A stretch of 63,442 bases of DNA, the filler included, from Rhabdomonas costata (Eukaryota), in NCBI GenBank assembly GCA_019059605.1. It is 36 parts of 36 records of this genome, joined end to end, with 100 filler letters (N's around TTAATTAATTAA, not from the genome) between each part and the next. Parts side by side here need not be neighbours in the genome. Positions count along the whole stretch, not along the records: positions 49,428 to 51,092 come from JAHMHO010011046.1; 35 more parts are not named here. One strand, written 5' to 3'. The notes under the pieces were generated by a model. It saw nothing but the letters and a program-made list of their open reading frames with translations, did not search any database and was not told the DNA's origin. Positions 1,767 to 54,153 of this stretch are shown here, in pieces (positions within the stretch are counted from its first letter, which is position 1; every line of letters begins with the position of its first letter). Position numbers and translations under genes: made by a program.

Positions 1767-4700
1767 TGTGTCGGGTGTGGTTGGTTGTGTGTTTGTGTGA
1801 GGGGGGGGTGGCGGGGTACCAGGGTTCGCCTTTTTTATAAACCAGTGCATATACGATATATGGAAGGTTGCGATGCGCGTGCCCCCCTGGGATTTGAATA
1901 GAAGCTTTTGCAGAACGTTTGCATGATAGGAGCAGATCATTCAAGGAGCGCAGCGGAGCGACTCCGGATCCTAAACGCTCCGCTACTTGTTATTTTTGGC
2001 TTTAAACGGGCATCTCTAGTACCGGGTACCTCCCCCACTTCACAATACCCGTGGACCCGGCGTTGGGAAGCCAAGCCAGTTCAACCCTACACAGGATACA
2101 CAGGAGCATGAGCCAAGTTTTGAGACTTAGCCTGAGCCTGGCACCTGGTCTTCCTCGGGTCGAGTCAGGAAGGTCAGGGTGTTGCTCTCGTAGCCCTTAA
2201 TCACCTGGACAGGTGAGAAATTGTGGGGCCAATGCGGTGTCCAGACAGGGTGCACACCCAGCCCACTGTTTGAAGGGAATCGTCACTCACTGTCGTCGAA
2301 TGCGATGAACCCTCAATTGTAGGAAAGACAACCTTTTTTCACTTTCAAAGCTAACTGAGGCTTGGAATGTGCATTCGGGGTATCAGTGCGCACGGTGAGC
2401 TTCGGTGGAAAATGTGGCCCAATTTCCGTGGCCCTTCGGAGATGAACAAAATCCCCAATGTTCGGAGCAGCGCTTTCGCACGAGGCACGCTAACGATCCA
2501 ACCAGCAACCCCGCCTGCCACCACCGCAGTGAGTGTGGAATTAAAAAAAAATGAAGAGACAGGGCACGCACGCACGGAGAGGTCCTCCTTTGAGCGGGCG
2601 AACCTCTAGGATTTTGGTTGGCTCCACCACTTGAACCTTCCGAGGAGGCTGGCTGTAGAGCTCATCCTGAAATGGAAAACGCGGGGTGGGCGTGAAAGGT
2701 AAACAAGAGAACAAGATCCAACCCAATCCAAAAAAAGAGGTTCCACTTCGGTGATGAAAAAACTTCGGTAGCACACACAAGGATGTCAACCGGTGAGAGA
2801 GGCATGCGGCTGCAGCAAAAGCACAGCGAAAAGGCACACCCCGCGGGCGAAGCGGATACAATTGTACAGGGAGAGCAGAGTTCTTCGGCGCACGTTGACG
2901 ACCAGCAAGGAGGTTCTGGAGCCCAAGTTGAGTTCCTCCTGAAAAGGCACATGCCCGCCCACAACGGAACCACAAAAGGAAGAGGTTGACCGCAAGCCCA
3001 GGAATTTCGAACCTCAACCCAGACATCCTGAAAGAGCAGAGCACTCAGCCAGCAGGTAACCAGCATTTTTTTTCCGAGAATCAAAGAATGATTGTCAAAG
3101 GCGCTGTGCGTGATATCTATTTGTTCGCCAATGAAGGTTTCCCCTTCATTGTGCCTTCAAGTTATTTTAATATAGAAGACAGGCCCTGGATTCCTTAGAC
3201 GGGGTCCAAACCAACACATGGTGGTGAAATGAGGTGGCAAGCCATCCATTATCCAAGTCATCCATCAGTCTACCACTCTTTAGGAATTTCTACTGGTGGC
3301 GGCTCCTTATTCTCTCGACTCTTTGAGGGCTCTGGGCCAGGGTTTCAGTTATCATCAGCACAAGCTTTATCACAGCAAGGAGGCAGCAGCAGCAGCAATC
3401 AATAAGGTGTTGATGATAACTGAAACCCCCCCNNNNNNNNNNNNNNNNNNNNNNNNNNNNNNNNNNNNNNNNNNNNTTAATTAATTAANNNNNNNNNNNN
3501 NNNNNNNNNNNNNNNNNNNNNNNNNNNNNNNNGTTGTGGGGTTCAACGGGACACACTCATAACTCGTTGGCCTCTTTACCTCCATTTTCCCAGGCTTCCT
3601 GCCGAGCATGGGAGTCATGCGCCCTTACAGGACGGAACGCGGGCCCTGGAGCTGGTGCGTGACAATGCTGAACATTGGGGCTTGGACCCCAGGAAGATTG
3701 GAATTATGGGGTCCCTGCTTTTTTTTAACCCTTTTTGCATTTGCTTTTCGCACTGGCAGGTGCATTAAACCTGAATTTCGGCACAACGTGTTCCTGATAT
3801 TCCTGGCTTTTCAGGCAAGTACTGCTTTTTGTTGCACACGCGACCTGAACCACATGTCACTGTTAAGTGAGTGCTTATGTTGAGGAGGTCGTCGATGTCC
3901 TCTTCTCCCTCTCAGCTTCTCTGCGGGAGGCCACCTTGCGGGCGCGGTAAGCCTTCACCACGCTCACCCCTTCGCACGGCGTGGGGACTGCCCCACTGGC
4001 AGCAGAGGGGGACCTGCTGCAAGACCAGATTTTGCTGTGCTGGTTGACTTTTTTTTCTGTGTTGTGTGGCATCTTCAATTTTTGGCGAGAAGGCAAAGTG
4101 CAGTTTTCAAGGCTTGCACGACGAGCGTGTCGACACCGCAGAAATCCCTCCCAATCCTGAGAAACGACCTCAAGGGCATGCCCGCACAGATGGGGTGCCA
4201 AAGCGCAATAGTTCAGCAAAAAGGGCACAGGATAGATACTCGCTGTAAATCGCGGACAATGCCACGAACCAACGTTTGCCAACCAGTTTGTCTTGCTTTC
4301 GATTGCTTCTCAGGTCTATCCTGTGGTGACAATGGAAACTTCCACACACCGGAAGTCCCGTTTGGCACTGCTGGGCGAAAACCCAACCCTGGAGCTGGTT
4401 CAGTTCTACAGCCTGGGTAATTACCCGCCCTCTCAAAAACACCAGTCCCGGCTTTACATTTTTCCCCTTCTCCTTTGTTTTCCTCTACTTGTGACGTTCT
4501 TTCAGAAAACCACGTGCAAGGATGGAGCGTGCAGCTGTTTCTGGTGCACTCTCGCAACGACCCTGTGGTTCACTCAAACAACTCCGTGGTGTTTGCAAAG
4601 GGTGTGCCCCCTTCCTCAAGCCGTTGGTTGGAAGGTAGGTGAGAAACAAAAGACCTGCTTTTGACAGGCCGAAATGGAAGTAATTTCGGGGAGTCGGCAG

Positions 4701-10773: not shown

Positions 10774-11266
10774 TTACGGCTTCACCACCAGCACAGGGCA
10801 GGGCGCGTTGTGCATGGCGTAGTGCGGGGTGGAGGAGACGTCGGCCTTGGCGGGCCCGGAGGTTCCGGTGGCCTCCGAGAGCTCCGCCATCAGCCCTTTG
10901 CTGCCCAGCACCAGGAGGTCGGCATCCAGGTCAAAGCATGCCTGCACCAGGGCCACCTTGCGGCTGGCCGTGCCAGCGATCTCCTTGATGGCAAAGCTGG
11001 CCTTGCTGCCGCTGTTCTTCAAGACCTCCTCGCTGAGCTGCGAAAAAGAGGTGCAAGAGGGAACATGGGCACCAAAAGTACCCCCACAAGGGAAACCCCC
11101 GGTTCCTCCGCAATCCCCTTGCCCTCCCTCGGGTCCACCTTGGCCGCGCGCTGCAGGACTTCCTTGGTCTTGGTGTCGCGGTACTTCGCGAAGTCCTCCT
11201 GGACCATCGCAGGTGCCTCCCGGGGTAGCGTAGGTGGGATGTAAATGCCGGTGATCTTGTCGACGT
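10774..11266 (-). CDS. Universal stress protein (USP) domain; exons 11266-11139, 11037-10774
   Basis: DADLLVLGSKG and HYAMHNAPCPVLVVKP* are canonical USP C-terminal motifs. Phase-0 GT-AG intron at 11138-11038. Confidence 0.88.
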
Positions 11267-12678
11267 CTGAGTCACGACCAACACACAGCCAGTACACCAT
11301 CACGCGCCAATGCACTTCACTGCACTGTATACCACAGGCAAACGATGAGAAGTGACAGAAAGCCCTGTCACGGTTTAGTCACAGTTTAATATGAGTTCCA
11401 GTGTCTCACCACTTTTCCCCACACCACTATTTCTGCTGGGTGCCGCCAAGCACTTGAAAAGTGAACAATTGAACAATTTGAACAAAAGAGGCAGAGAATG
11501 CTGTCCTCAATCAGACTGACCTCGCGATTAAGGCGGCCGAGGCTGGGCCTCAACGCAGCCCGCTGCGCAGCCCGCTGGAACATGGCTCGGTAGTGGTTGT
11601 GGTGGTGGGGGGGAGCGCACGCCTATTTCAGAGCTCACTCCGAAGACGCAAAGAACAAAAGGAATCGAAAGCAGGTCGCTGCAACGTGAAAGAAGCGAAC
11701 AACGCATGAACTCATTACCGCTTTACAAACCAGCCTCGGCACTGCACATGTCCCAGTGCACCCGTCGTTGTGGGTGATTGCCACAAAACAGGCCGAAACC
11801 TCAAAAGTCAAGCTAAACGCACACAAACCGATAACCGCGTGTGCCCTCCACAACCTTGTATTTGAGATCTCTGCCCTGCAAAAGCAACCATTCAAGCATT
11901 CGCCATCTGTCTCAATGGACATCTGGGCAGATTGGAAGCAGCGAAAAGCACGCATTTGGCAGGAAGAAACGTACCCATAACCCACATCCTCAGAAAATTC
12001 CGGTGGGATCAATAAATCAAAGCGCCGAAAAAACGCAGCTCGGAAAAAATAGCAAAAGAAAAAGCGATCAAGGGATTTTTGTCGCGTTGCATGAAATACT
12101 TAAATTTCTCTTTCCCTCACATCAGGAACGGTTCCAATTTGAGGAGGGAGGAAAGATTTTGGATGCCTCGACTCGGAAGAGATTTTCTTTTTCTTCTCTT
12201 TCAGTCTCGGGTCATGACTTCGGTGCTGTCGAATACGGGCCAGTGACGTATCCAGGTAAAGCATNNNNNNNNNNNNNNNNNNNNNNNNNNNNNNNNNNNN
12301 NNNNNNNNTTAATTAATTAANNNNNNNNNNNNNNNNNNNNNNNNNNNNNNNNNNNNNNNNNNNNTGTGGTGGGTGTGGTTGGGTGGGGTGGTCCCAGATG
12401 CTGGTTATGGTGGCATATGTGCTACGGGCCACCGCCAGAAGAAGTCCGAACAATTGTCCGGAAAAAACAAGCAAGACATACGGCAAACATTTTATGTGGG
12501 TGAAACGACCACCACACATTGGTAAACCCGAGTTTTTTGCGAACTGCTGATAATCATCTTTCTGCACCACATCGCCAGAACATGTCCTGCTGGAGGCAGT
12601 AATTCAGTAAAAGCCCCAAGCCACCACAATCACAAAGTGTCGGCATCTCCAAATGACATCGGTGGACCAGAACCACAC

Positions 12679-16982: not shown

Positions 16983-19578
16983 GTTTGAGCCCTACAAACT
17001 CTCGACACACTCGCACTCATATCAGCTGATGCCACACCTTAGTCCCTTCTCACTTACACTTTCAGTTTTTGAATAATAGTCCGTGCTGAAATATAAACTT
17101 CTCTGAACCCTTGCCCGAATAGTTTCTCAGCAGTTCGTTTGAAAAGTCGAAGAAAACTATTGGGCCTGGCTACTAAGTAACGGTTTCACGTGCAAAACCT
17201 AAATTTTTCATGAGAAATTCAAGACCGCTGTGCGTTGTGTATTCTCCGGAAACCTCAGGTGATTTAATTTAATTCCATGAATAATATGGAACTAACGCGA
17301 TCACCGCAAGACCAGAAGGAGAAATTTAGTCAGAATGCATGCAGTTCCAAGAGCGGTGCCAGCTGAAAAGGAAACGGAATATTTTCGGTTGCGCCTTGAA
17401 CTCAGACTACGCCATCCTGTGTCTTTTGCGTACCCATTGCAAAAACTACTCTTGTGCCCAGCGAAGGCCCAATTAGCCCTACACCATTAAGACGAAAACA
17501 ATCGCGCCTAAGGGCGGGAAAGATATTGATGAGATTCTTCTTTGTGCAGCTGCGCAAACAAANNNNNNNNNNNNNNNNNNNNNNNNNNNNNNNNNNNNNN
17601 NNNNNNTTAATTAATTAANNNNNNNNNNNNNNNNNNNNNNNNNNNNNNNNNNNNNNNNNNNNGGGGGTTCCCACCGTTCCCACAGAAAGCTCAGGGCCTC
17701 GTACAGCAGGATGCCACAGCTGGCAGAGCGCTGCCGCCGTCCCTGTCCCGCCTCTTCTCCCAATGCCGCGGCAGGTTCACCACAGAGATGACCCCCGCGC
17801 CGCAGCGCAGCGCCGTGCAGGCCCAGGCACTGCTGCACGCACCGCACGGCCTCCTTCCGAACCCCCGCGGAAGGATCCCTCCCTATGGGGGTCAGGGAGT
17901 GAGGGCGAGGAAAGCAAAGAATCCGTTTTAAGCCCTTCTGAGATTTAGTGCCCGTCTTCCTTTTATCCACGGACTCTCCCCCCCCCCCCCTTTTTTTTTG
18001 GGGGGGGGGGAAGCAAAAGGGAACGGTCAGCAGACGTTTTTTTCAAACGAATTGCGTCACAACAGTTCGGGTTGCACAGACACAATGGTCTAAAACAAAA
18101 GAGGAAATAGTGCCACTCCACTCCTTATCAATTACAGAATATATCCTGAGTGGGTCGAGGGACAAACCAAAAAGAAGAAGGGCTGGCCCAAGCTCCTCCA
18201 GAAAGAACGAGGGCCCCTCCTCGCCGAGCACCGCAGATTTCTCTGAAGCACAAAGAGAGAGATGGAGGCAGGCGGGGTGTAACGAAAGGTTCTCACAGTC
18301 TGTGTTTACTCCAATTCGATCAGGTCTTCCCTTTAATTTCAAGACCACCTTTAGCTGCGATACGTGACACCACAAAAAGAGCAACCAATGGGTATGAGTG
18401 AGTGTTATCTGCCATCCTTAGCTTTTCCACTATATATGATAGGACAGCCACAATCCATGTGAAGCAGTTTCGAGACATTTGGACGGGAACTTCAAGGGGG
18501 GAAAGTTCAAAGCTGAAATGACTCATCAGCAATGAAGGGATGGGACGAAAAAAATGGCGGCCCACCTAAGAGGTACTGAGCCCAAGGCAGCAAGATCGCT
18601 GGCAAGCTCTCAAGCGCGGGCGAGCTCTCCGCCGCGGCTGCCCGAAGTAGGTCGCGCACGGCCTTCACCCCACTTCGGGCCAGCCACGGCGGCGGCAGCC
18701 TCACCCTTTTGACAGAGCAGGAAATGCGAGAGATCCATAAGAAACTCACGGCACCGCAAAAGGGACATAAACCGCCTTGTACATGATGGTGTTGTCGTGG
18801 GCAAGTTCATATCTACTCGAGGAAGTCTCCTTGTGCTTGTTGTGTTGATTAAAACATCATGATGATGAGGCAGTGCAACCACCACAATCTTCAAATCCCC
18901 TGCCCGATTTTTTCGGCCCACCAAAGGAACCAGGAAGATCCTGAGGGAAATTCGGAAAAACAGAAACAAGTGGGTGCAGCCCACAGACACTAGGATCGCC
19001 TGTACACCTTTCAAGTAGTGAAGAAATGGAGACCAGTGATGCGATGTCGAGAGCCTCCCGTTTAGATCATCCCACCTTTCGGAGAGCCCCACCTCTCCAT
19101 CCCGTGCTCCGGCCCAGCATGCCAGCTGTGTACATGTGATGTGCAGTGGTTCTGCTTTACCAACACGCCTGAAAGAGAACCCTTCAAACTGACTTTCTTG
19201 GAGAATATGTGGGTAACGGGTAAAACCTCATGAAGTGGTGCTGCAACTGGCGCACAAAGAACCCCAGGAAGACCGGAGAGAAGCGCGCCGCGCCAACCCA
19301 CTTTCGGCTGTGCACCAAAACAANNNNNNNNNNNNNNNNNNNNNNNNNNNNNNNNNNNNNNNNNNNNTTAATTAATTAANNNNNNNNNNNNNNNNNNNNN
19401 NNNNNNNNNNNNNNNNNNNNNNNTGTGTTAGGTGAGTTGGTTGCAGCAGCAAAGCGGGAGATTGTATGAACGACTTTGGTTTACAGGTGCGTATGCCCCG
19501 GTGCCATTAAAAGCCCGTATTGCATTCCTGATGGGGATTGCATTCTTTACATCTGTACACATCCCCCACCGCTCGCAC

Positions 19579-19858
19579 CTGTTCGCTGGGCACCGGGGTT
19601 CTGCAGGGGTGCATTTCGGAGAAGTGGGGGCACAGCAGCTTGGTATTGCCCTCGGTGACGTGGGCGACGAGGTATTGCACCAAGCAGTCGTGGCAGAAGA
19701 GGTGTCCGCACCCCGACAGTACCACCGCGGCCTCCACTTGCTCCGTGCTCAGACAGATCTGGCAGTGGAACGTCGGCGGTGCGGCCACGGGCTCAGTTCC
19801 CACGGAGTCCAGGAAAGGCACCTTGAGCGCAACCCCTTCTTCACCGTCACCCACAGTC
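19579..19858 (-). CDS. RBR-type E3 ubiquitin ligase, RING1 exon
   Basis: FHCQICL...CGHLFCHDCLVQYLVAHVTEG..LLCP...C, flanked by CAG| and |GTGCGA. Confidence 0.8.
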
Positions 19859-21779
19859 CTGCCCAGGCCACGCAAGCACAAGAAAAAGGAAAATGTTCAG
19901 CCAGAGGGAGTTTTTTCTGAAGCAGAGCTTTTTGGTGAGTTCAGCGGTCTCTCGTCATCTACATCTCCATGTAGTGGCGGTAAGTTCCGGGTGCGATCCA
20001 TTCCCGGTAAGCTAAGGTGAGCTTCATTCAACCCCCCCCCCTTCCCCAAAAAAGACATGACGTATGCAGCGGTCCCCCGGGGTGAGAGCGAGGTTGTGTA
20101 TGGCAGCGAAAAGAAAACCCGGCTGCGTGACTTTCAAGGCTTGGTAGATAAAAAGTCATGATGAACCACAGCAGGAACAGCAGAAAGGCAGCTAGCTTGC
20201 AGCTGAAAGGATCGACTTAAGTTTCTGTTCAGTTTGTTGTTATCCTCTCGATTCCTCCTCCACGACCCACAAACTTCCGGGACCGGAATGAGGGAAAAAA
20301 AGAGGAATAACGAGCAACTCACCGGTCTTTCATCGAACATAACGGTGCGGTGCAGCGGGGACCTTCAGGGGTATTAGGTCCGCCACCAAGAACTTTCCGG
20401 ATTCATTACTTGTACATGTCCCCAGACAACAGCATTTTATAAAGGCTAAAAAGACTTCGAATGGAAGACTGTCACATACCATTTTCTAAGTTTCCGGGTG
20501 TAACCTTACCTTATAATGACTGGACCCAGGGTTCTGAACAGCTTAGAAAAAGCCATCAACAGCACTCAGCAGGTGTTCCTGATGAGCTGGTGGGTTCCTT
20601 TCCGATCCACAACGCGCTTCGGACAGTGTATTTCATGCTTCTTCAGGCAAAGCAAATCCAAGATGACTCACCTATGCCAGCAGTGACCACAAGGTAACCA
20701 TCAAAGAGCGGGTGCTACTGGCAGAAGAAATCCACGTAAAGGAATCAAAAATACAACGCAAAACCAAAAGCGGAAATGAAATTATCCACAGCACTTGAAA
20801 CGACCACAGCATCAACGCAGGCGGGAAGGAAAACAACAGGAAGAAGAAAGAGGCAGGAAAAGTTCCTCTGGACGTGTGTCAGCGTGAGCGTGATGAGAAT
20901 GTGGGAATGTATGGTGCGTGTGTACAATGATGTCTACAGGCAAACACTGATAAATACTGCGGCGCCAGGAACTGTGTGGTATCTCTCTTCTCTCACGCAG
21001 CGGCTCTACCATTCAATCACTTGTGTAGTGCTGGTTGTATAGTCTCCATTGTTCAGCAACGGGGACAAACGCAAGCATCCCAAAACACANNNNNNNNNNN
21101 NNNNNNNNNNNNNNNNNNNNNNNNNNNNNNNNNTTAATTAATTAANNNNNNNNNNNNNNNNNNNNNNNNNNNNNNNNNNNNNNNNNNNNTTGTTTTGGTA
21201 ATTTTTGAATCGCCTATTTCGGTTAATTAGCGCAATTGACGTTCGGTATGTGAGGTAACTATTTCCAGTGGTAACTGGAAAACGGTTTTGTTAGCAAGGG
21301 GCGGAGACGAGCCCACGACGTGGCCGGAAAGGCGGCCGAGGCAGGATCGTGGTCAGAGGTCCTTAGGGTTAGGGTGCTTTTGGTTCTCCAGTAAAAGTAT
21401 TACCACATCACAACCCCCCCCCCAAAAAAAAACAACAACAACCAAGAACACCAAAATAAAAATCCTTCACTTATGGCCCTGCCAGACCACAGCATGTTCA
21501 AAGCGGATGCGAATGTCATGCTGTATAACAGTAACCTTCTTCTTCGCCCTTAATGCGGGTATGCCAATGACATGCGTATATCTGTATCTGGACCAAGGGT
21601 CGCACATCCTAGCCCATCTTTGACTAGAAGCTCATCAGAACGTTCTGATGAACCTCCTTGTTCCCCAGTCATGAAAACAAGCCCCGGACTCCTGTGCTCA
21701 TCATCGCGGGCCACCTTACGCGCTGAAATCCTTATCAAAGAATATCAGTGTCACTGAGGCGCAAAGTTCTCCTGAGTCT

Positions 21780-26386: not shown

Positions 26387-26494
26387 NNNNNNNNNNNNNN
26401 NNNNNNNNNNNNNNNNNNNNNNNNNNNNNNTTAATTAATTAANNNNNNNNNNNNNNNNNNNNNNNNNNNNNNNNNNNNNNNNNNNNGTGGGGGG

Positions 26495-27665
26495 GTGCCC
26501 ACCCACCCCGACGCGGGGCGGTGCTGGCAGATCTGCGAGAAGTACAAGGTGAACATCTTCTACACCGCGCCCACGGCGATCCGCGCGCTGATGAAGTTCG
26601 GGGACGACCCCGTGAAGAAGTACGATCTGAGCTCCCTGCGGGTGCTGGGCTCGGTGGGGGAGCCGATCAACGTGGAGGCCTGGAAGTGGTACCACGAGGT
26701 GGTGGGCCACAAGCGCTGCGCGATTGTGGACACCTGGTGGCAGACCGAGACAGGTCTCCTTTTGCTGGTCCAGGAGAAGGGCCTCCCCTCAAAATGCTTT
26801 GGCTCCACAAATGAAGGTACTGTTCTATCGAAATTCTGTTTTCAGGGGGGATCTTGATCACCCCGCTGCCTGGGTCCACGCCCACCAAGCCCAGCTCGGC
26901 CACGCTGCCGTTCTTCGGGGTGGAGCCCGAGATCGTGGATGAGAAGGGCGAGCCCATGAAGGGGGAGTGCAACGGAGGCCTTTGTATTAAGAAGCCGCAC
27001 CCCGGGATCTGCCGCACGGTGTTCGGCGACCACAAGCGGTACGAGGAGACGTACTTCCAGGTCGCTCTTCTTGCCCATTTCGAGCGGCGTGGACCTCTCT
27101 CGTTCTGCTTCCTCTTTTCCAGATGTATCCTCCTTTCCAACGTCGCCCCCCCCTCCCAGCCAGCTTTTGCTTCCGTTTTGTTTTCCAGATGTACCCTGGG
27201 TACTACTTCACTGGGGATGGGTGCCGGCGCGATGAGGACGGGTACTACTGGATCACTGGCCGTGTGGACGACGTCCTGAACGTCAGTGGGCACCGGCTGG
27301 GCACGGCGGAGATCGAGAACGCGATCAACACGCACCCCGACGTCATCGAGAGCGCCGTGGTGGGTTACCCCCACGACATCAAGGGGGTGGGGATCTACGC
27401 CTACATCACCCTGAAGGAGGGCAAGGAGCTCACCGAGGACACCAAGAAGAGCATCGCGGCGATCGTCCGGAAGATCATCGGCCCCATCGCCACCCCGGAC
27501 ATCATGCACTTCGCCCCGGGGCTGCCGAAGACCCGCTCCGGGAAGATCATGCGGCGCATCCTGCGCAAGATCGCCACCAACGAGACGGACCAGCTGGGCG
27601 ACATCACCACCCTGGCGGACCCCTCGGTGGTGGAGAAGCTGATCGCCAACAAGCCCAGGGTGTAA
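26495..27665 (+). CDS. acs: Acetyl-CoA synthetase (AMP-forming), C-terminal half; exons to 26753, 26846-27060, 27189-27665
   Basis: [57 protein letters not shown] and [11 protein letters not shown] motifs. GT-AG introns at 26754-26845 and 27061-27188. TAA stop. Confidence 0.97.
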
Positions 27666-48545: not shown

Positions 48546-49429
48546 ACAACGACAACTCCACTCAAAACTCCATGAGATCAACCCCTGAGCTCGGGCTGCG
48601 GTGAAAAGGACGCCAGCCCCCGCAACAGGAACAGTATGTTTTTGGTGGGCGAAATCGGTCGAGAGTCATACCGTATGAGTGGAAATAAATGGAACAGCAC
48701 GAATTATAGGTCAATGGGTCAGCGTCGAAGTTGACCCTCATTTCCAATTTTTCTTTGTAGAGAAGCCTTTACGGCGTGCCGGGGCCCGCATTTCGCATTT
48801 CGCAGGGGGGCTTGGGGTAGTGAGAGTGTTTTTTGTACGTCGTCAATAAACCCTCCACTGCCAGGGGAAAGAAGCGGCGCAAGAGAAACAACAAGCGGCA
48901 CGAGTGGGTACCTGCTTGAGGTGAAAGAGCGGGACACAAATTGAATGCTGAAAAGGGGAAAAGTCGTGATGAAAACCGCCGGGGCGAGAACACATTTTTG
49001 CATTGTTGAAGTAGAAAGTTCGCAGTAAATTTTTCTGTGTGGATGCCGGAGAGGAAACCTTCCTTATCGTTGTACGATTCTGTGCCATTTTCTGTTTCTC
49101 AGCTGCTTTTCTGTGCAAGTGTTTGCATGTCCTTGACTTTATTTTGTTCTTCCATTTTTGATTCCACAAAATGAACAGTTCAAACGGTATGCTTGCTGGC
49201 CAGATGCTTTTCACGTCATGGCACAAGCATCCACACGAACCCCCACACACAGATCGCACACAGATCGCCGGCTAAATCTAATTCTTGCGTCGCCTCCCAA
49301 CCCGGGGTATGTTGCTGGGCGGGCTCCNNNNNNNNNNNNNNNNNNNNNNNNNNNNNNNNNNNNNNNNNNNNTTAATTAATTAANNNNNNNNNNNNNNNNN
49401 NNNNNNNNNNNNNNNNNNNNNNNNNNNTG

Positions 49430-50350
49430 CGTTCTGGGGATTGTTTCCTTTCCTTTGCACAACGACTTGGGGATACCCGTCTTATATCCCTTTGCATGCA
49501 AAGGTCCGCCTCCAGCATTGTGGAGAAAGCTCTCCACGTTCACAGGGCCGATGATCGGATGAAACGAAACCAGTGGACTCGTCTCGACCTTCTTCGTGCC
49601 GCGGCGGAGTCCACTTGCACGTGCGATCGTTCGGGTGACTGGAAATGCATGGCCGTGGAGCTTCTTCGATTGCAGCAAATCTCGCCAGAGCAGTTCGCTC
49701 AGGCGGTAGTTCGTGCACTTGAAGCAGGCGCATCCAAGAGCGTAAACATTTTCTTGTATGGCACGACTTCATCGGCTAAGTCTTGGATTCTGGATCCCCT
49801 GCGGGTTATTTACGCCTGCCACCTCACACCACCTCGCAAATCTGGATTTCCTCTGCAAGATCTTCCTGAAAAGGAAGTAATTTTGTGGCAGGATTTCCGG
49901 CTTGATGAAGAGGTGCTTCATTGGAGCGGTCTTCTTCTGCTATTTGAAGGGACGCAGGTGACCATCAGGCGACCAAGAAACATCTTTCCAGGGGATCTGG
50001 ACTTCGTTGTTGGCCAGCCTATTTTCATCACATCCGCATCCAGGCTCTTCCACCGTGATGTGGAGGAGCAAAAGATGATGGACGGGAGATTTAGGTTCTT
50101 CCATTTTGGGAAATCGATCCCAGCACAACGTGCACGGAAGATCCCGTGTGGCCCCTGCTTCGCTTCGCTGTGGCTATCCCTCGCCCCTCTTCATGCTCGA
50201 GCTCCACAACTCCAGCCATACGCCCACGACTCCCACTCAAGCTCAACGGACGCATCGAATTCGTCATCTGTTCATCTCTTCTGCGTGGACTGTGGGCTTC
50301 TCCGCTCCTCCTCGCCGTTTTGCTCCGCATATGGCAAGAAACATGTGTAA
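49430..50350 (+). mobile_element. Intronless parvovirus-NS1/Rep-like superfamily 3 helicase ORF with C-terminal CCCH finger, 5'-truncated
   Basis: NIFLYGTTSSAKS (Walker A, 49760-49783), FPLQD...VILWQDF (Walker B), LLFEG..V.I..P (B'), PIFITS (motif C) and MMDGRF (Arg finger) occur in SF3 order and spacing. The frame is open to the contig edge. Confidence 0.8.
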
Positions 50351-51577
50351 TTCACGCATTATCCAGTTTACTCCACTCTTCCTCCCTGTCTCAGCTATGT
50401 GCGGACCCTTTGTGTACATTAGTTATGCTCTTGGTTCATAAAATCTGTGAGCGTCTGTGTGTGTGTTTGTGAAAGCGCTTGTTGTGCGAAAGATGTAATG
50501 GAGTTGTTATATCGATGGTCGATTGTAACGGTGTTCTTGTGAATCACAAATGTACAGATTTACCTATTACAACCACCTGATATGGGTGCCTGCCGCTACA
50601 TCTCGGAACTCTGACTGATTTGTGCTTCACTTTGTCTGACAATTTCTGTTATTTGGGGATTTACGGGAAAGAAAGCGAGCTAATAAGAGCTGTTCTACAA
50701 AGGGAAATGCTTGCATTGGAGGTACCCCTTGGTGTGGTGACATTACGAAAAGATTCTAAGCTGTATGTTAGGGCACATATCCTGATTGCGTGTAATATAT
50801 GACTTTTCGTATCTATATTGCATTTAATAATATTATAAATGAGCCAAAATCTGCACATTCTGCAGTAGGACGCGCTGTTGTCATATTTCGAATCCAACGT
50901 TGACTGCAGGGGGCCAGGGGGGGGGGTCGAGTTTGTAGTTGAAATTAACTCAAAGTGACCCAAAACAATAAAAATATGCAAGCCTATGGCCCCAAAACGG
51001 GCAAAATGGCCAAAAACAGGCAAAAAAAAAGAGCCCAGTGTATGGCACAGGCGTCATTGTCGGTGGAAGTGGGGTATTTTCAAAACACCACANNNNNNNN
51101 NNNNNNNNNNNNNNNNNNNNNNNNNNNNNNNNNNNNTTAATTAATTAANNNNNNNNNNNNNNNNNNNNNNNNNNNNNNNNNNNNNNNNNNNNGTGGGTGG
51201 TGTTGGGGGGACATAAAAAGATCAGAGACAGGTGATGGTAAGTTAAGTGCGAAACAGGGGTGGCAGGGCGGCGGGCGACGTTGAGAGCATAGAGGAAAGC
51301 ACGGCATGACTAAGGGAATGGGGTAGCGCGGATAGCGCGGTTAACGCGAAGTGCAAAAACGGTAAGGAATGGCGCAGCAATTCAAGCTGAGTGCCGGAAA
51401 GGCAGTGAGTTACTGAAGAAAAAGGAAGGGAGACTGGATCAGCCTCTGACGCTGTATTATCCTCAAGGACAATTTTCAGGGCGGCAGTATTCCGCGCTGT
51501 GGTAAACCAGAAGCAGGTAGGAAGCAGAGGACAGAGGATGCAACACCAGTAGTAGACGGTCGCCGCCTCAGAACGCC

Positions 51578-52692
51578 GGCTGCCTCGGCTGAGGCCAGCT
51601 TCAGGCATGCCCCCGCATCCGGGTGTTGGTACTGCCCCGAGAAGATCTGCACGCAGTCCGAAGCAAACCGAAGCATCCGCAGCGCGTGGCCCTCGTGGTC
51701 CATCTGAGGATACCGCAGCCCGGGAGGGAGACCCCCAATACCGCCGTTTGCCAGCAGACCTCCACTGCGGCAGCCCACACTTCCGCTCCGGCAGCTCGCC
51801 TTGCGCTCCCCTCGGTCGGTGCGGGTCAGCCCTGGGGGGCCGCAGATCGCGAAGTAGGCGTCCCCCACCGTGCTGACCTTGAACACCCCGTAGTATGCCG
51901 CCACCGTGTCCATCACCCCAAAAACGTACCCCAGCCACTCCAGCATCTGGGGAGCAGTGAGGCGGTTGGTTATTGCGCTGAAGTGGCAGATATCCGAGAA
52001 GAACACCGAGGCCTGCCGGGGGACAGGTAGCAGAATCCAAGGATGGGGGGAAAGAAGGGAGCAAGAGAAAAATATCAGCTGTTCTGAATTATGGCAACTT
52101 TGAAAAGTTTGGAAGTGGGAAGTGGGACTGCCGTAGGGGTCTGTACTTGTTCTTTCTTAAATCAGTCAAGGAGCAGCGGGGAGGACTGCAAAAGAGACAC
52201 ATTACCCTTCTTTACAAAAAAAAAGTAAAACATAATGTAAAACATTTCTCTCAACCAGCGCCGACGATTAAAACCGGACATCCAAAATTCAGCACGTCCT
52301 CGCATCGTGCACCGGTGCGCGCTGAGCGGCAGATTGCTCCAGCCGCGGCGGGGGTGAGCGTCGCCCACACAAAAAAACACTGTCTGAATCAATCCAAAAA
52401 GTCCCGCACCGTTTACAGCATTAAAGGTTTAGCTCCCCAACCAACCAAATACAACGCAATTTCGCACGAGGCCCACCTCGGGAGCCTGCACCACAATGGG
52501 ACACTCCCCGGCCAGCAGCTTCTCCGTCGCAAACCGCGGGTAGAAGGCGTCCACGAGCTCCTCGAAGCTCTCCTTCTGCTGCTGCACTGCCCGCCGCCCG
52601 CGCTTCCACGTCTCCTCTATCGTGTTCAACATCCGCCGCGCCGACACTCCAAGCAGAGCCACCCCAACGATCGCGGCGCCAACAGCAGTGCC
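51578..52692 (-). CDS. Membrane-anchored class III adenylate/guanylate cyclase; exons 52692-52477, 52012-51800, 51703-about 51578
   Basis: TM plus coiled coil, LVDAFYPRFATEKL, ASVFFSDICHFS, VFKVSTVGDAYFAICG and HALRMLRFA. Both metal-binding Asp residues are present. Confidence 0.9.
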
Positions 52693-53116
52693 CTGAAAGA
52701 GGTGTGTCGAGAAATAACTATGGATAAATCGAATTACTGCAGAAAGAGGAGAGAATCGAACGTACCCCCCACACACATTCCAAGACACACACACACACAC
52801 ACACACTACCCCACGAAAAATAAGAAGGAACGAAAACAAACCCCAAACACACCCACANNNNNNNNNNNNNNNNNNNNNNNNNNNNNNNNNNNNNNNNNNN
52901 NTTAATTAATTAANNNNNNNNNNNNNNNNNNNNNNNNNNNNNNNNNNNNNNNNNNNNGGGTGTGGGGTGAATACGTGCGCGTACAGAAGAGCGCGAAAGC
53001 CAGAACTAAAACAACTTGCATTTTCCGTTTCGCTCAACTGCTGAGAAGGGCAACCATTCATATAATTAAAGGTGAATCATGTTGGGACGCAAGGGAGAGT
53101 GCGGGTGGCAGCACAC

Positions 53117-53399
53117 TCAGAGCGAGCAGCAGGGTCCTGTAGTTGAACGAGGTGTCACCTTTGATGTCAGCGGCAAGCTCGTGACCACACAGGGCTTCGT
53201 AAGCCCGCGCCACCATATTGAGATGCCCACGGGGGCGGCTGCCAATGATCTCGATCAGCTCCGTATCACAGGTACCACGGCCCTTCATCGCGTGGTAAAG
53301 GCGGTCCGCGTCCGACTGGACGCCAGAGCCCATCGCGGGACCCATCGCAGGGGGGACTCCAAAAGGCATTGCATGCGGAGGGTAACCTGGGAAAGCCAT
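53117..53399 (-). CDS. Annexin, first exon
   Basis: A Gly/Pro/Tyr-rich N-terminus, then DADRLYHAMKGRGTCDTELIEIIGSR...AY...G.EL..DIKGDTS.NY..LL.AL (annexin repeat 1). Confidence 0.92.
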
Positions 53400-54153
53400 T
53401 GTAAGCCACAAAGGTGCCTGCCAAGGGTGCCTAAAAATCTGCCAATAGAAGTAATGCGTTGCGCACTCATACTCGCCTGTTTCCGATCTAAACCCCCTCC
53501 CACGGCTGGCAATCGAAAATAGGGAGCGGCACAGAAGTAAAGCTTCGAAAAGGTAAGGGGGACTTGTCAACAAAAACAGCACTGCCAGAGTTGGCCTGGT
53601 TTTTCGACAAACGTAAAAAAAAAGCATGTGGTGAAAAACTTAACAGAAACATATAACTAATAAAATGCGCAAAAATTAAAATACGTAGCAATTGGTCTTC
53701 GCTGGTTCGGTGGCAAGGAAAGGATCATGAATCCTGTTTGCCTTTCCTCGTGAGTTTAATTTACCACAATGCAAGCTGAGCAGAGTTTGGGTACGGGGAA
53801 TGTGAGATGCCACAACTGCAAGACGAAAAACGGATCACTAGGCAAGCACCCAGTACAGGTCCGAGTTCACAAACCACCTTTCCCATTCCCAGCGCATGCA
53901 AATAACCGCATTTTGTAGTTGTGGCTGCGGAGGCAACCCCACTCAAACAGACATAAGCGCACTTCAAAAGGAAATAGGATCAGTATTTACAAAGGCCGGG
54001 AAAACAACGGCCCAACCATACATCATGATCAGCACCGTCCCTGCATGGGGCAGGTGACGAAAGGTAGAAGCTCATGAGACCTGGAAACACTGTGAAAAAA
54101 CATATCCGCTCACCCATTTCCAACTATAGCCTCCTCCCGCCTGCCGGTTCAGC

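Follow-up and report, generated by a model that had tools for sequence, protein, structure and literature searches.

A truncated Rep-like gene encoding a superfamily 3 helicase in a Rhabdomonas costata assembly, probably from an undescribed family of selfish replicons or mobile elements

We analysed a stretch of 63,442 bases (hereafter the window) from the Rhabdomonas costata assembly GCA_019059605.1, in which one contig carries the 3' part of a Rep-like gene with a superfamily 3 (SF3) helicase domain. The window is composed of 36 contigs of about 1,660–1,669 bp with N44-TTAATTAATTAA-N44 spacers between them, and contains 72 runs of exactly 44 N flanking 35 copies of TTAATTAATTAA. Because it is a chain of unrelated contigs, neighbouring 'genes' in the window are not genomic neighbours. 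The features of the contig with the Rep-like open reading frame (ORF) are as follows, with residues numbered from the first codon of the ORF.

49428..51092, no strand: contig with the Rep-like ORF, 1,665 bp, N44-TTAATTAATTAA-N44 spacers on both sides
49430..50350, plus strand: 3' part of the Rep-like gene, 306 codons and a TAA stop, open at the 5' edge of the contig
49430..49726, plus strand: helical N-terminal part of the helicase module, amino acids (aa) 1–99, seven helices
49616..49642, plus strand: CxC..G.W signature (C63, C65, G69, W71)
49760..49783, plus strand: Walker A (P-loop), GTTSSAKS
49874..49894, plus strand: Walker B, EVILWQD
49931..49981, plus strand: motif B'-like block, LLLLFEGTQVTIRRPRN
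50018..50035, plus strand: motif C strand, PIFITS
50075..50092, plus strand: MMDGRF block, holding Arg220
50147..50158, plus strand: CxxC pair (C240, C243), where the last helix begins
50279..50344, plus strand: C-terminal CxxC...C...H tail, zinc-ribbon-like, after a Ser/Pro-rich linker
50351..51092, no strand: 742 bp downstream of the stop, with neither a recognisable gene nor an inverted repeat or transposase found

The frame is open from 49430 to 50347 and closes with a stop codon at 50348–50350. The first-pass annotation of this DNA had described an uninterrupted ORF of more than 920 nt reaching the contig edge, and the 306 open codons on a contig that begins at 49428 agree with this. The ORF starts two bases after the spacer, so it is the end of the contig that cuts it and not a stop codon. 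It corresponds to about residues 335–642 of the full-length relatives described below. Met 49496 falls within the block LCMQRSA, which is internal and conserved in these longer proteins, indicating that it is not the true start and that a gene model beginning there represents a truncated Rep gene and not a complete host gene. Among the 123 stop-to-stop frames of at least 120 aa in the window, the ORF ranks second longest. When the window was searched by tblastn with four family proteins, the ORF was recovered at E 0 to 1e-99 as the single family copy, and nothing else scored better than E 0.07. No similarity to the other contigs of the window was found for 49428–51092, and no repeats were found in it beyond a weak A-rich tandem array, (CAAAACGGG)x3.6, at 50993–51025 near its 3' end.

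We then compared the codon usage of the ORF with that of other genes in the window. The first-pass annotation had contrasted its T-ending codons with a GC3-rich gene labelled 'ACS'. The ORF has a third-position GC content (GC3) of 0.55 and a third-position T content (T3) of 0.28, and it does differ from the AMP-binding (ACS) fragments (GC3 0.81–0.84, T3 0.10–0.13). However, an annexin fragment has nearly the same values (GC3 0.58, T3 0.30), so the contrast is weak and the ORF is not a compositional outlier.

Sequence profiles gave weak but consistent hits to viral helicases, all of them sub-threshold. With the curated gathering threshold as the Pfam criterion, Parvo_NS1 (PF01057) matched the window protein at E 0.063 and 12.7 bits against a cut-off of 20. 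Parvovirus B19 (B19V) NS1 matched at E 0.46, and adeno-associated virus (AAV) Rep40 at E 0.6–0.8 when a six-sequence profile was used. PPV_E1_C (PF00519) reached 25.1 bits in the relative P0004, and its best score among 30 long relatives with bit scores was 25.4, against a cut-off of 26.5. Two of the three families for which a profile check had been proposed were thus matched, in the window protein or a relative, but both remained below the Pfam cut-off, and the structure was decisive. An ESM Atlas feature search placed the ORF among Parvo_NS1/PPV_E1_C clusters (scores of 0.93–0.96 in the first eight rows), and a PHROGs scan of the window protein returned 0 families.

To obtain a structure, the window protein was modelled using AlphaFold2 with a 126-row family alignment (mean predicted local distance difference test score (pLDDT) 92.9, predicted template modelling score 0.80). 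Foldseek matched 90 PDB chains to this model at E ≤ 0.001. The top match was papillomavirus E1 (2gxa_E, E 4.6e-9), and AAV2 Rep68/Rep40 and B19V NS1 were also among the leading ones. In a second comparison, using VIA-align all-against-representatives, the Z scores were highest for AAV2 Rep40 (18.5, 232 residues aligned), bovine papillomavirus E1 (18.0, 243 residues), human papillomavirus E1 (17.1, 192 residues) and B19V NS1 (15.5, 212 residues). These were followed by the SaPI5 primase-helicase (13.4, 194 residues), simian virus 40 large T antigen (SV40 LT; 12.9, 238 residues) and vaccinia D5 (11.0, 194 residues). The ATPases of Reps from CRESS DNA viruses (circular, Rep-encoding and single-stranded) scored 8.2–8.6 over 118–121 residues, and cellular AAA+ proteins 8.6 or less over varying numbers of residues. 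Because the model matches AAV2 Rep40, papillomavirus E1 and B19V NS1, the window protein is, by predicted fold and most motifs, an SF3 replicative helicase. The proposed parallel to AAV Rep and NS1 is therefore well founded (Z 15.5–18.5, far above cellular AAA+ proteins and above the D5 type), and the best match was neither a cellular AAA+ family nor a D5 primase-helicase, the outcomes that had been named as speaking against it. In the model, residues 3–99 are helical (pLDDT 95–98), the structural matches 9rm5_a and 2v9p_A begin at residue 1, and the predicted helical part (aa 1–99) is aligned with the region that serves for oligomerisation, or as a collar, in AAV Rep40 and E1.

Next, residue conservation was counted over the family alignment of up to 126 rows, in which the number of filled columns varies. 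The results showed that the window protein retains every nearly invariant family residue, and that all motifs quoted in the first-pass annotation are present and conserved across the family. The Walker A sequence aligns to GPPSTGKT of B19V NS1, with G111 in 124/124 rows, K117 in 125/125 and S/T118 in 124/125. Position 116 is Ala in the window protein, and is Gly in 97 and Ala in 28 of 125 family rows. We counted the SF3 Walker A pattern GxxxxGK[ST] as present, with Lys117 and Ser118 in place and Ala replacing the Gly before the Lys. Walker B aligns to VVWDE of NS1 and VIWWEE of AAV Rep, and its Asp155 is acidic in 124/125 rows (D 114, E 10). The B'-like block aligns to AKAILGG..RVDQK of NS1 and follows the pattern EG..V.I..P[RK]N (G174 123/126, P182 113/125). 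The motif C strand is followed by AS in the window protein (PIFITSAS) and is well conserved (P197 122/126, F199 115/126, T/S201 125/126). The classical SF3 motif C ends in Asn (sensor 1). This Asn is absent from the window protein and throughout the family alignment, so that one defining feature of SF3 is missing, and position 203 after the motif varies (Lys in 25, Gly in 18 and Arg in 18 of 125 rows).

The signatures that had been noted outside the classical motifs, CxC..G.W before the P-loop and MM.R[FW]..CxxCFA after it, proved to be genuine marks of the family. C63 is conserved in 119/122 rows, C65 in 110/117, G69 in 94/122, W71 in 112/123, C240 in 125/126 and C243 in 126/126. Arg220 is invariant (126/126 rows), and its position after the last core strand makes it a candidate arginine finger. 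We suspect that C63, C65, C240 and C243 together form a zinc site. The cysteines of the C-terminal tail are invariant in six close relatives (pLDDT 84–88 in the tail, 50–60 in the linker), and the relative P0030 reaches the Zn_Ribbon_1 cut-off (26.8 vs 25 bits).

To place the protein within its family, we searched for relatives. A word-indexed search found five (P0002–P0006), 52–63% identical to the window protein, and an exhaustive HMMER search of 1.84 billion sequences found 804 representatives of clusters at 50% identity at E ≤ 1e-3, 397 at ≤ 1e-10 and 22 at ≤ 1e-30. Profile A1 found 19 proteins, all on contigs of 8.6 kb or less, and 13 of them were full-length (602–652 aa, the range of the close full-length relatives). 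The domain order in full-length relatives is a J-domain, an HUH nuclease, an acidic linker, the SF3 helicase and a zinc ribbon. The HPD motif of the J-domain is seen in the close relative P0010, and the HPD columns are filled in only 12–16 of 90 rows, so only some members of the family have the J-domain. A search for longer fused forms of 903–2,575 aa gave none at E ≤ 1e-5, although this negative is itself weak evidence.

The nuclease motifs are strongly conserved in the relatives. The Thr of motif I is found in 82/86 rows, each His of HxH (motif II) in 86/90, and Tyr215 and Tyr221 each in 89/90, with a Lys three residues past Tyr221 in 35/90. We modelled the first 278 residues of the Rep protein encoded at 987–2912 of one metagenome locus, L003 (pLDDT 85.2). 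Foldseek gave only weak E-values for this model (best 9.5e-3), and VIA-align was needed to show the fold. In its wide search the first nine rows were all Rep nucleases. The Z scores were 11.2 for wheat dwarf virus (WDV) Rep, 11.1 for tomato yellow leaf curl virus (TYLCV) Rep, 10.4 for Vientovirus Rep, 9.2 for nanovirus M-Rep, 9.1 for pMV158 RepB, 8.1–8.5 for the LT origin-binding domains of SV40 and JC virus (SV40 8.5), 7.6–8.3 for circovirus Reps, 6.3–6.5 for the E1 DNA-binding domain and 6.0–6.2 for the AAV origin-binding domain. Auxilin J-domains matched residues 2–83 of the same model (Z 6.4–6.9). The suggestion that the missing 5' part may encode an HUH endonuclease was thus borne out in the full-length relatives by motifs I–III and by fold. 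The window's own copy may have the same 5' half, and the transposase partner described below.

Pfam matches among 90 family proteins (E ≤ 0.01) were to REP_ORF2-G2P (27), PPV_E1_C (21), Parvo_NS1 (13), SHOCT (9), SAM (5), DnaJ (5), Gemini_AL1 (5), RNA_helicase (3) and DEK_C (2). Rep_N was not among the 25 commonest Pfam families of these proteins, and no Polyoma_lg_T_C hit was found in the family. The C-terminal tails vary across the family (SAM domains, SHOCT, single or double zinc ribbons), and some members have an N-terminal DEK_C or DnaJ domain. These variants were seen in P0012, P0015, P0094, P0097, P0108, P0033, P0093, P0142, P0145, P0030 and P0046, and they suggest that accessory domains have been exchanged repeatedly within the family.

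We then examined the gene neighbourhood of relatives in five loci, L001–L005, the 5 confirmed among 215 pattern matches in one metagenome scan (contigs of 2.7–6.5 kb). Their Rep ORFs are uninterrupted and 55–64% identical to the window ORF. In 5/5 loci, a homologue of DDE_3 (Tc1/mariner/IS630-type) transposases follows Rep as the next gene downstream in the same orientation, at the positions listed here.

L001:1880-2773, same strand as Rep: transposase, open to the contig end
L002:3100-4174, same strand as Rep: transposase, interrupted
L003:5551-6282, same strand as Rep: transposase, cut by the contig end
L004:3375-4464, same strand as Rep: transposase, interrupted, in-frame stop near 3540
L005:1502-2584, same strand as Rep: transposase, intact, 361 aa, 43.6 bits (cut-off 28.6)

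The transposases of L001–L004 are homologous by tblastn (2e-19 to 2e-90), and the transposases have a helix-turn-helix N-terminus and the signature DNDP...PPRSPD.NPIEN. The gap between Rep and transposase in the relatives is about 0.26–2.6 kb. The closest Rep pair, L001/L005 (76.5%), is also the closest transposase pair (49.6%, in four comparisons with the L005 transposase only), and on these sequence comparisons Rep and transposase appear to diverge together, as a co-inherited pair. The transposase frame is interrupted at the same position in L002 (3718–3922) and L004 (3975–4197) over about 190–210 nt. An intron or decay may account for this, and a search for splice sites by which the frame would be restored found none.

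No capsid-like family was found when 20 ORFs flanking Rep in L001–L005 and in the window contig (there within the 742 bp downstream) were examined. Self-comparison of L001–L005 revealed no overlap between contig start and end of the kind expected from circles. At the start of L003 lies a palindrome whose 137-nt arms are 97% complementary and enclose a 22-nt loop (DNA fold −169.6 kcal/mol, z −33.4). This palindrome lies within L003:1-600, about 700 bp upstream of the Rep start, and carries repeated CATGAAGGCC units. A diverged third copy of one arm follows at 431–511, 150 bp further on. The palindrome, the only one among the five loci, might serve as an origin or terminal hairpin, or result in part from a fold-back in the assembly; no terminal palindrome or hairpin was found in the window contig. 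L004 has a tandem array, GTATTCAGTG x3.8, at positions 9–47 at the contig start, about 540 bp upstream of the Rep start, which looks iteron-like. The palindrome and the array, with one example of each, may represent origins or ends.

To assess selection, the window ORF was compared with the five loci. The proportion of nonsynonymous differences (pN) was 0.24–0.29 and that of synonymous differences (pS) was 0.74–0.86 (saturated), and the ratio of the corresponding rates (dN/dS) was 0.11–0.14 in the 3 of 15 pairs with computable dS. These values point to Rep copies that are old, under purifying selection and kept functional. Such a pattern would suit lineages of an active element or virus, or paralogues in a host, and not a decaying fossil.

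We also searched for relatives in virus, plasmid and prokaryote collections, in all cases with limited sensitivity. Among 2.9 million viral contigs of IMG/VR, profiles A1, A4 and A5 gave 576, 75 and 108 pattern matches, none of which was confirmed; the 48 pattern matches of profile A1 in GTDB prokaryote species genomes were likewise not confirmed, and tblastn with P0010 found no match among PLSDB plasmids or INPHARED phages. Where the ESM Atlas gives taxon labels, which are few, these are eukaryotic (Cnidaria, Mollusca), in keeping with the invertebrate-associated relatives mentioned in the first-pass annotation, together with some virus labels. Some related clusters are labelled as Cossaviricota viruses in 50–56% of their labelled members.

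Taken together, we consider it probable that the ORF is an intact 3' Rep fragment of an undescribed family of selfish replicons or mobile elements resident in eukaryotic genomes. Its gene most likely derives from such a replicon or element, and not from a capsid-bearing virus. The original proposal of a rolling-circle element or endogenous single-stranded DNA virus is accordingly favoured in its first half, while the second is less likely because the relatives have no capsid gene and carry a DDE transposase.

Several results weigh against this interpretation. The window itself shows the helicase half only, and the HUH and J domains and the transposase were seen in relatives 55–64% identical to it. 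No Pfam model reached its gathering score in the window protein, and no DDE transposase was found in the 742 bp after the stop on its contig. Since the five loci all belong to a single group of related metagenome records, the linkage is shown for one subclade only, and 2/5 transposase copies are interrupted, one with an in-frame stop. No terminal inverted repeats that could mark the element boundaries were found around Rep and transposase: a repeat of at least 16 nt spanning the pair was seen in none of L001–L005, whose contigs may stop before the ends. Finally, the Ala in Walker A and the missing Asn of motif C mean that ATPase activity is not guaranteed.

If the family acts as a replicon, the HUH domain would nick a specific single-stranded origin through its tyrosine (YxxK) and remain attached to the 5' end. 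The module seen in the window would form a ring through the helical collar, and this ring would unwind DNA 3'→5' with ATP, by means of Lys117, Asp155 and Arg220. The J-domain, where present, may recruit host Hsp70, as in polyomavirus large T antigen, and the Tc1/mariner-type DDE transposase paired with Rep in the inspected subclade would supply integration and excision.

Among the alternatives, the one that survives best is a domesticated cellular gene family, in which an anciently captured Rep took on a host role (replication restart, repair or defence) and expanded as paralogues. We regard it as unlikely. The strong purifying selection with saturated synonymous sites, the intact frame with all key residues, the eukaryote-type accessory domains (SAM 5/90, DnaJ 5/90, DEK_C 2/90), a GC3 within the range of other window genes and the failure to find a capsid gene would all suit it. 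However, the HUH catalytic residues are kept in 86–89 of 90 rows, and their chemistry is tied to replicon initiation. The very large diversity (804 clusters at 50% identity), the confinement of all 19 profile-A1 proteins to contigs of 8.6 kb or less and the transposase gene adjoining Rep in 5/5 loci also argue for a mobile family over a host gene.

Next in order, and also improbable, is that a non-integrated virus was co-assembled with the host, either a free or episomal small DNA virus or one belonging to a symbiont or a contaminant. The second gene of the loci, a DDE transposase, is typical of chromosomal elements, and neither a capsid-like ORF in the five loci nor a confirmed relative in the IMG/VR contigs, searched with three profiles, was found. 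These observations have to be set against a contig of only 1,665 bp with no host sequence attached, a helicase nearest to parvovirus and papillomavirus proteins, the Cossaviricota labels of some ESM Atlas clusters, and the starting palindrome of L003, whose 137-nt arms recall parvoviral terminal hairpins. A dead endogenous viral fossil, a decaying fragment without current function, is very improbable: the copy is truncated in the assembly, its Walker A has a Gly-to-Ala change and motif C no Asn, but the truncation coincides exactly with the contig end, the Ala (28/125 rows) and the missing Asn (throughout) are shared family traits, 306 codons run without stop or frameshift, and pN is far below pS.

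Beyond the selfish replicon or mobile element that we prefer, a more specific reading is possible but doubtful. The ORF might sample an undescribed class of eukaryotic integrative replicon that joins a DDE (Tc1/mariner-type) transposase, serving entry into and exit from chromosomes, to a Rep with an active HUH nuclease. In this Rep the nuclease would be geminivirus/CRESS-like, the SF3 helicase parvovirus/papillomavirus-like and the J-domain, where a member has one, polyomavirus-like. It could be a living intermediate on the proposed route that leads from CRESS-DNA viruses, by way of parvoviruses, to the polyoma- and papillomaviruses.

To relate the family to known systems, we compared it with each in turn. 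Parvovirus NS1 and AAV Rep40–Rep68 give the best structural match, with a helical collar before the AAA+ core, aligned Walker A, Walker B and B' motifs, and the same order of HUH nuclease and SF3 helicase. The family differs in its sub-threshold Parvo_NS1 scores (12.7 bits in the window protein; E ≤ 0.01 in 13/90 relatives), in a nuclease closer to geminivirus/CRESS Reps (Z 10–11) than to the AAV origin-binding domain (6.0–6.2), in lacking the motif C Asn, in the added J-domain and zinc-ribbon tail, and in the DDE transposase that adjoins Rep in relatives, in which no VP/capsid gene was found. An endogenous parvovirus was considered unlikely, as the relatives' nuclease appears to be of another type and the flanking ORFs examined include no capsid gene.

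Papillomavirus E1 is the top Foldseek match (Z 18.0 over 243 residues in VIA-align), and no other helicase model of Pfam hits as many family members as PPV_E1_C (21/90). According to PMC6668415, the HUH motifs have been lost from the DNA-binding domain of E1, whereas the Rep relatives conserve them, and their N-terminal domain resembles the E1 domain only at Z 6.3–6.5. Polyomavirus LT has the same order of J-domain, HUH-fold DNA-binding domain and SF3 helicase, and is similar by structure in the origin-binding domain (Z 8.1–8.5) and the helicase (Z 12.9), the J-domain of the relatives matching auxilin (Z 6.9). The HUH-fold domain of LT is described as inactive in PMC6668415. The Rep family, in contrast to the catalytically dead LT domain, keeps HxH and Tyr, and has the J-domain in part of its members only. 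Membership of the LT group was rejected on the retained catalytic HxH and Tyr of the equivalent domain in relatives.

CRESS/geminivirus Reps are closest to the relatives' nuclease (WDV, TYLCV, Vientovirus, nanovirus) and share the motif I Thr, the motif II HxH and the motif III YxxK, with Gemini_AL1 hits in 5/90 proteins. In contrast, their helicases match in the ATPase core only (118–121 residues, Z 8.2–8.6), the Rep relatives are about twice as long, and neither a capsid gene nor any sign of a small circular genome was found in the relatives' loci. Helitrons and Replitrons, like this family, are eukaryote-resident elements built on a Rep HUH nuclease. As defined in PMC10288648, Helitrons have a Rep fused to an SF1B helicase, and the Replitron Rep has no fused helicase. 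The Rep relatives carry a fused SF3 helicase and a separate DDE transposase; hence, within those definitions, the view that an element combining HUH and SF3 would be distinct from both stands. Assignment to Helitrons was rejected, since the helicase is SF3 by fold and not Pif1-like SF1B, and assignment to Replitrons because a helicase is fused to the Rep of the relatives. With Tc1/mariner elements the family shares the DDE_3 transposase downstream of Rep in L001–L005, and differs in that no terminal inverted repeats were found around the pair. We know of no Tc1/mariner element that carries a Rep gene.

HUH-SF3 Rep proteins are a hallmark of small DNA viruses and plasmids, and to our knowledge the HUH elements of eukaryotic chromosomes use another helicase (Helitrons) or none (Replitrons). 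The family carries no curated name, and the window protein belongs to no curated Pfam family at threshold. Its combination of a CRESS/geminivirus-type nuclease, a parvovirus/papillomavirus-type helicase and, in part, a polyomavirus-type J-domain is unusual. As these three features are usually split among virus groups, the family bears on the kinship of the replication proteins of those viruses. In the full-text literature, with subscription journals and supplements outside our reach, we found no description of a J-domain-HUH-SF3 Rep in eukaryotic genomes or of a Rep linked to a DDE transposase, and, given this scope, a prior description may exist. Neither the architecture nor the Rep-DDE pairing appears in the accessible sections of PMC10288648, PMC6668415, 10.64898/2026.06.19.733378 and PMC11071296. 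If the linkage is general, it would represent a new mobile-element design in which Rep replicates and the transposase integrates.

In the remainder of the window, an Rfam scan of its whole length gave 0 matches. A search for the 15-nt dinoflagellate spliced-leader motif (with ≤ 2 mismatches) also gave 0 matches, which is evidence neither for nor against a dinoflagellate host. Ordinary eukaryote-type gene fragments are present on other contigs, as follows.

26489-27662, plus strand: AMP-binding enzyme fragment in two frames, AMP-binding and AMP-binding_C, E 1e-19 and 1.5e-22
51479-52156, minus strand: adenylate/guanylate cyclase fragment
53061-53639, minus strand: annexin fragment
19510-19896, minus strand: RING finger fragment
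10777-11271, minus strand: Usp-domain protein fragment

The AMP-binding fragments at 26489–27662 (plus strand) are the 'ACS' that the first-pass annotation had taken as its host codon reference. Across the cyclase, annexin, RING finger and Usp-domain fragments, GC3 ranges from 0.58 to 0.74.

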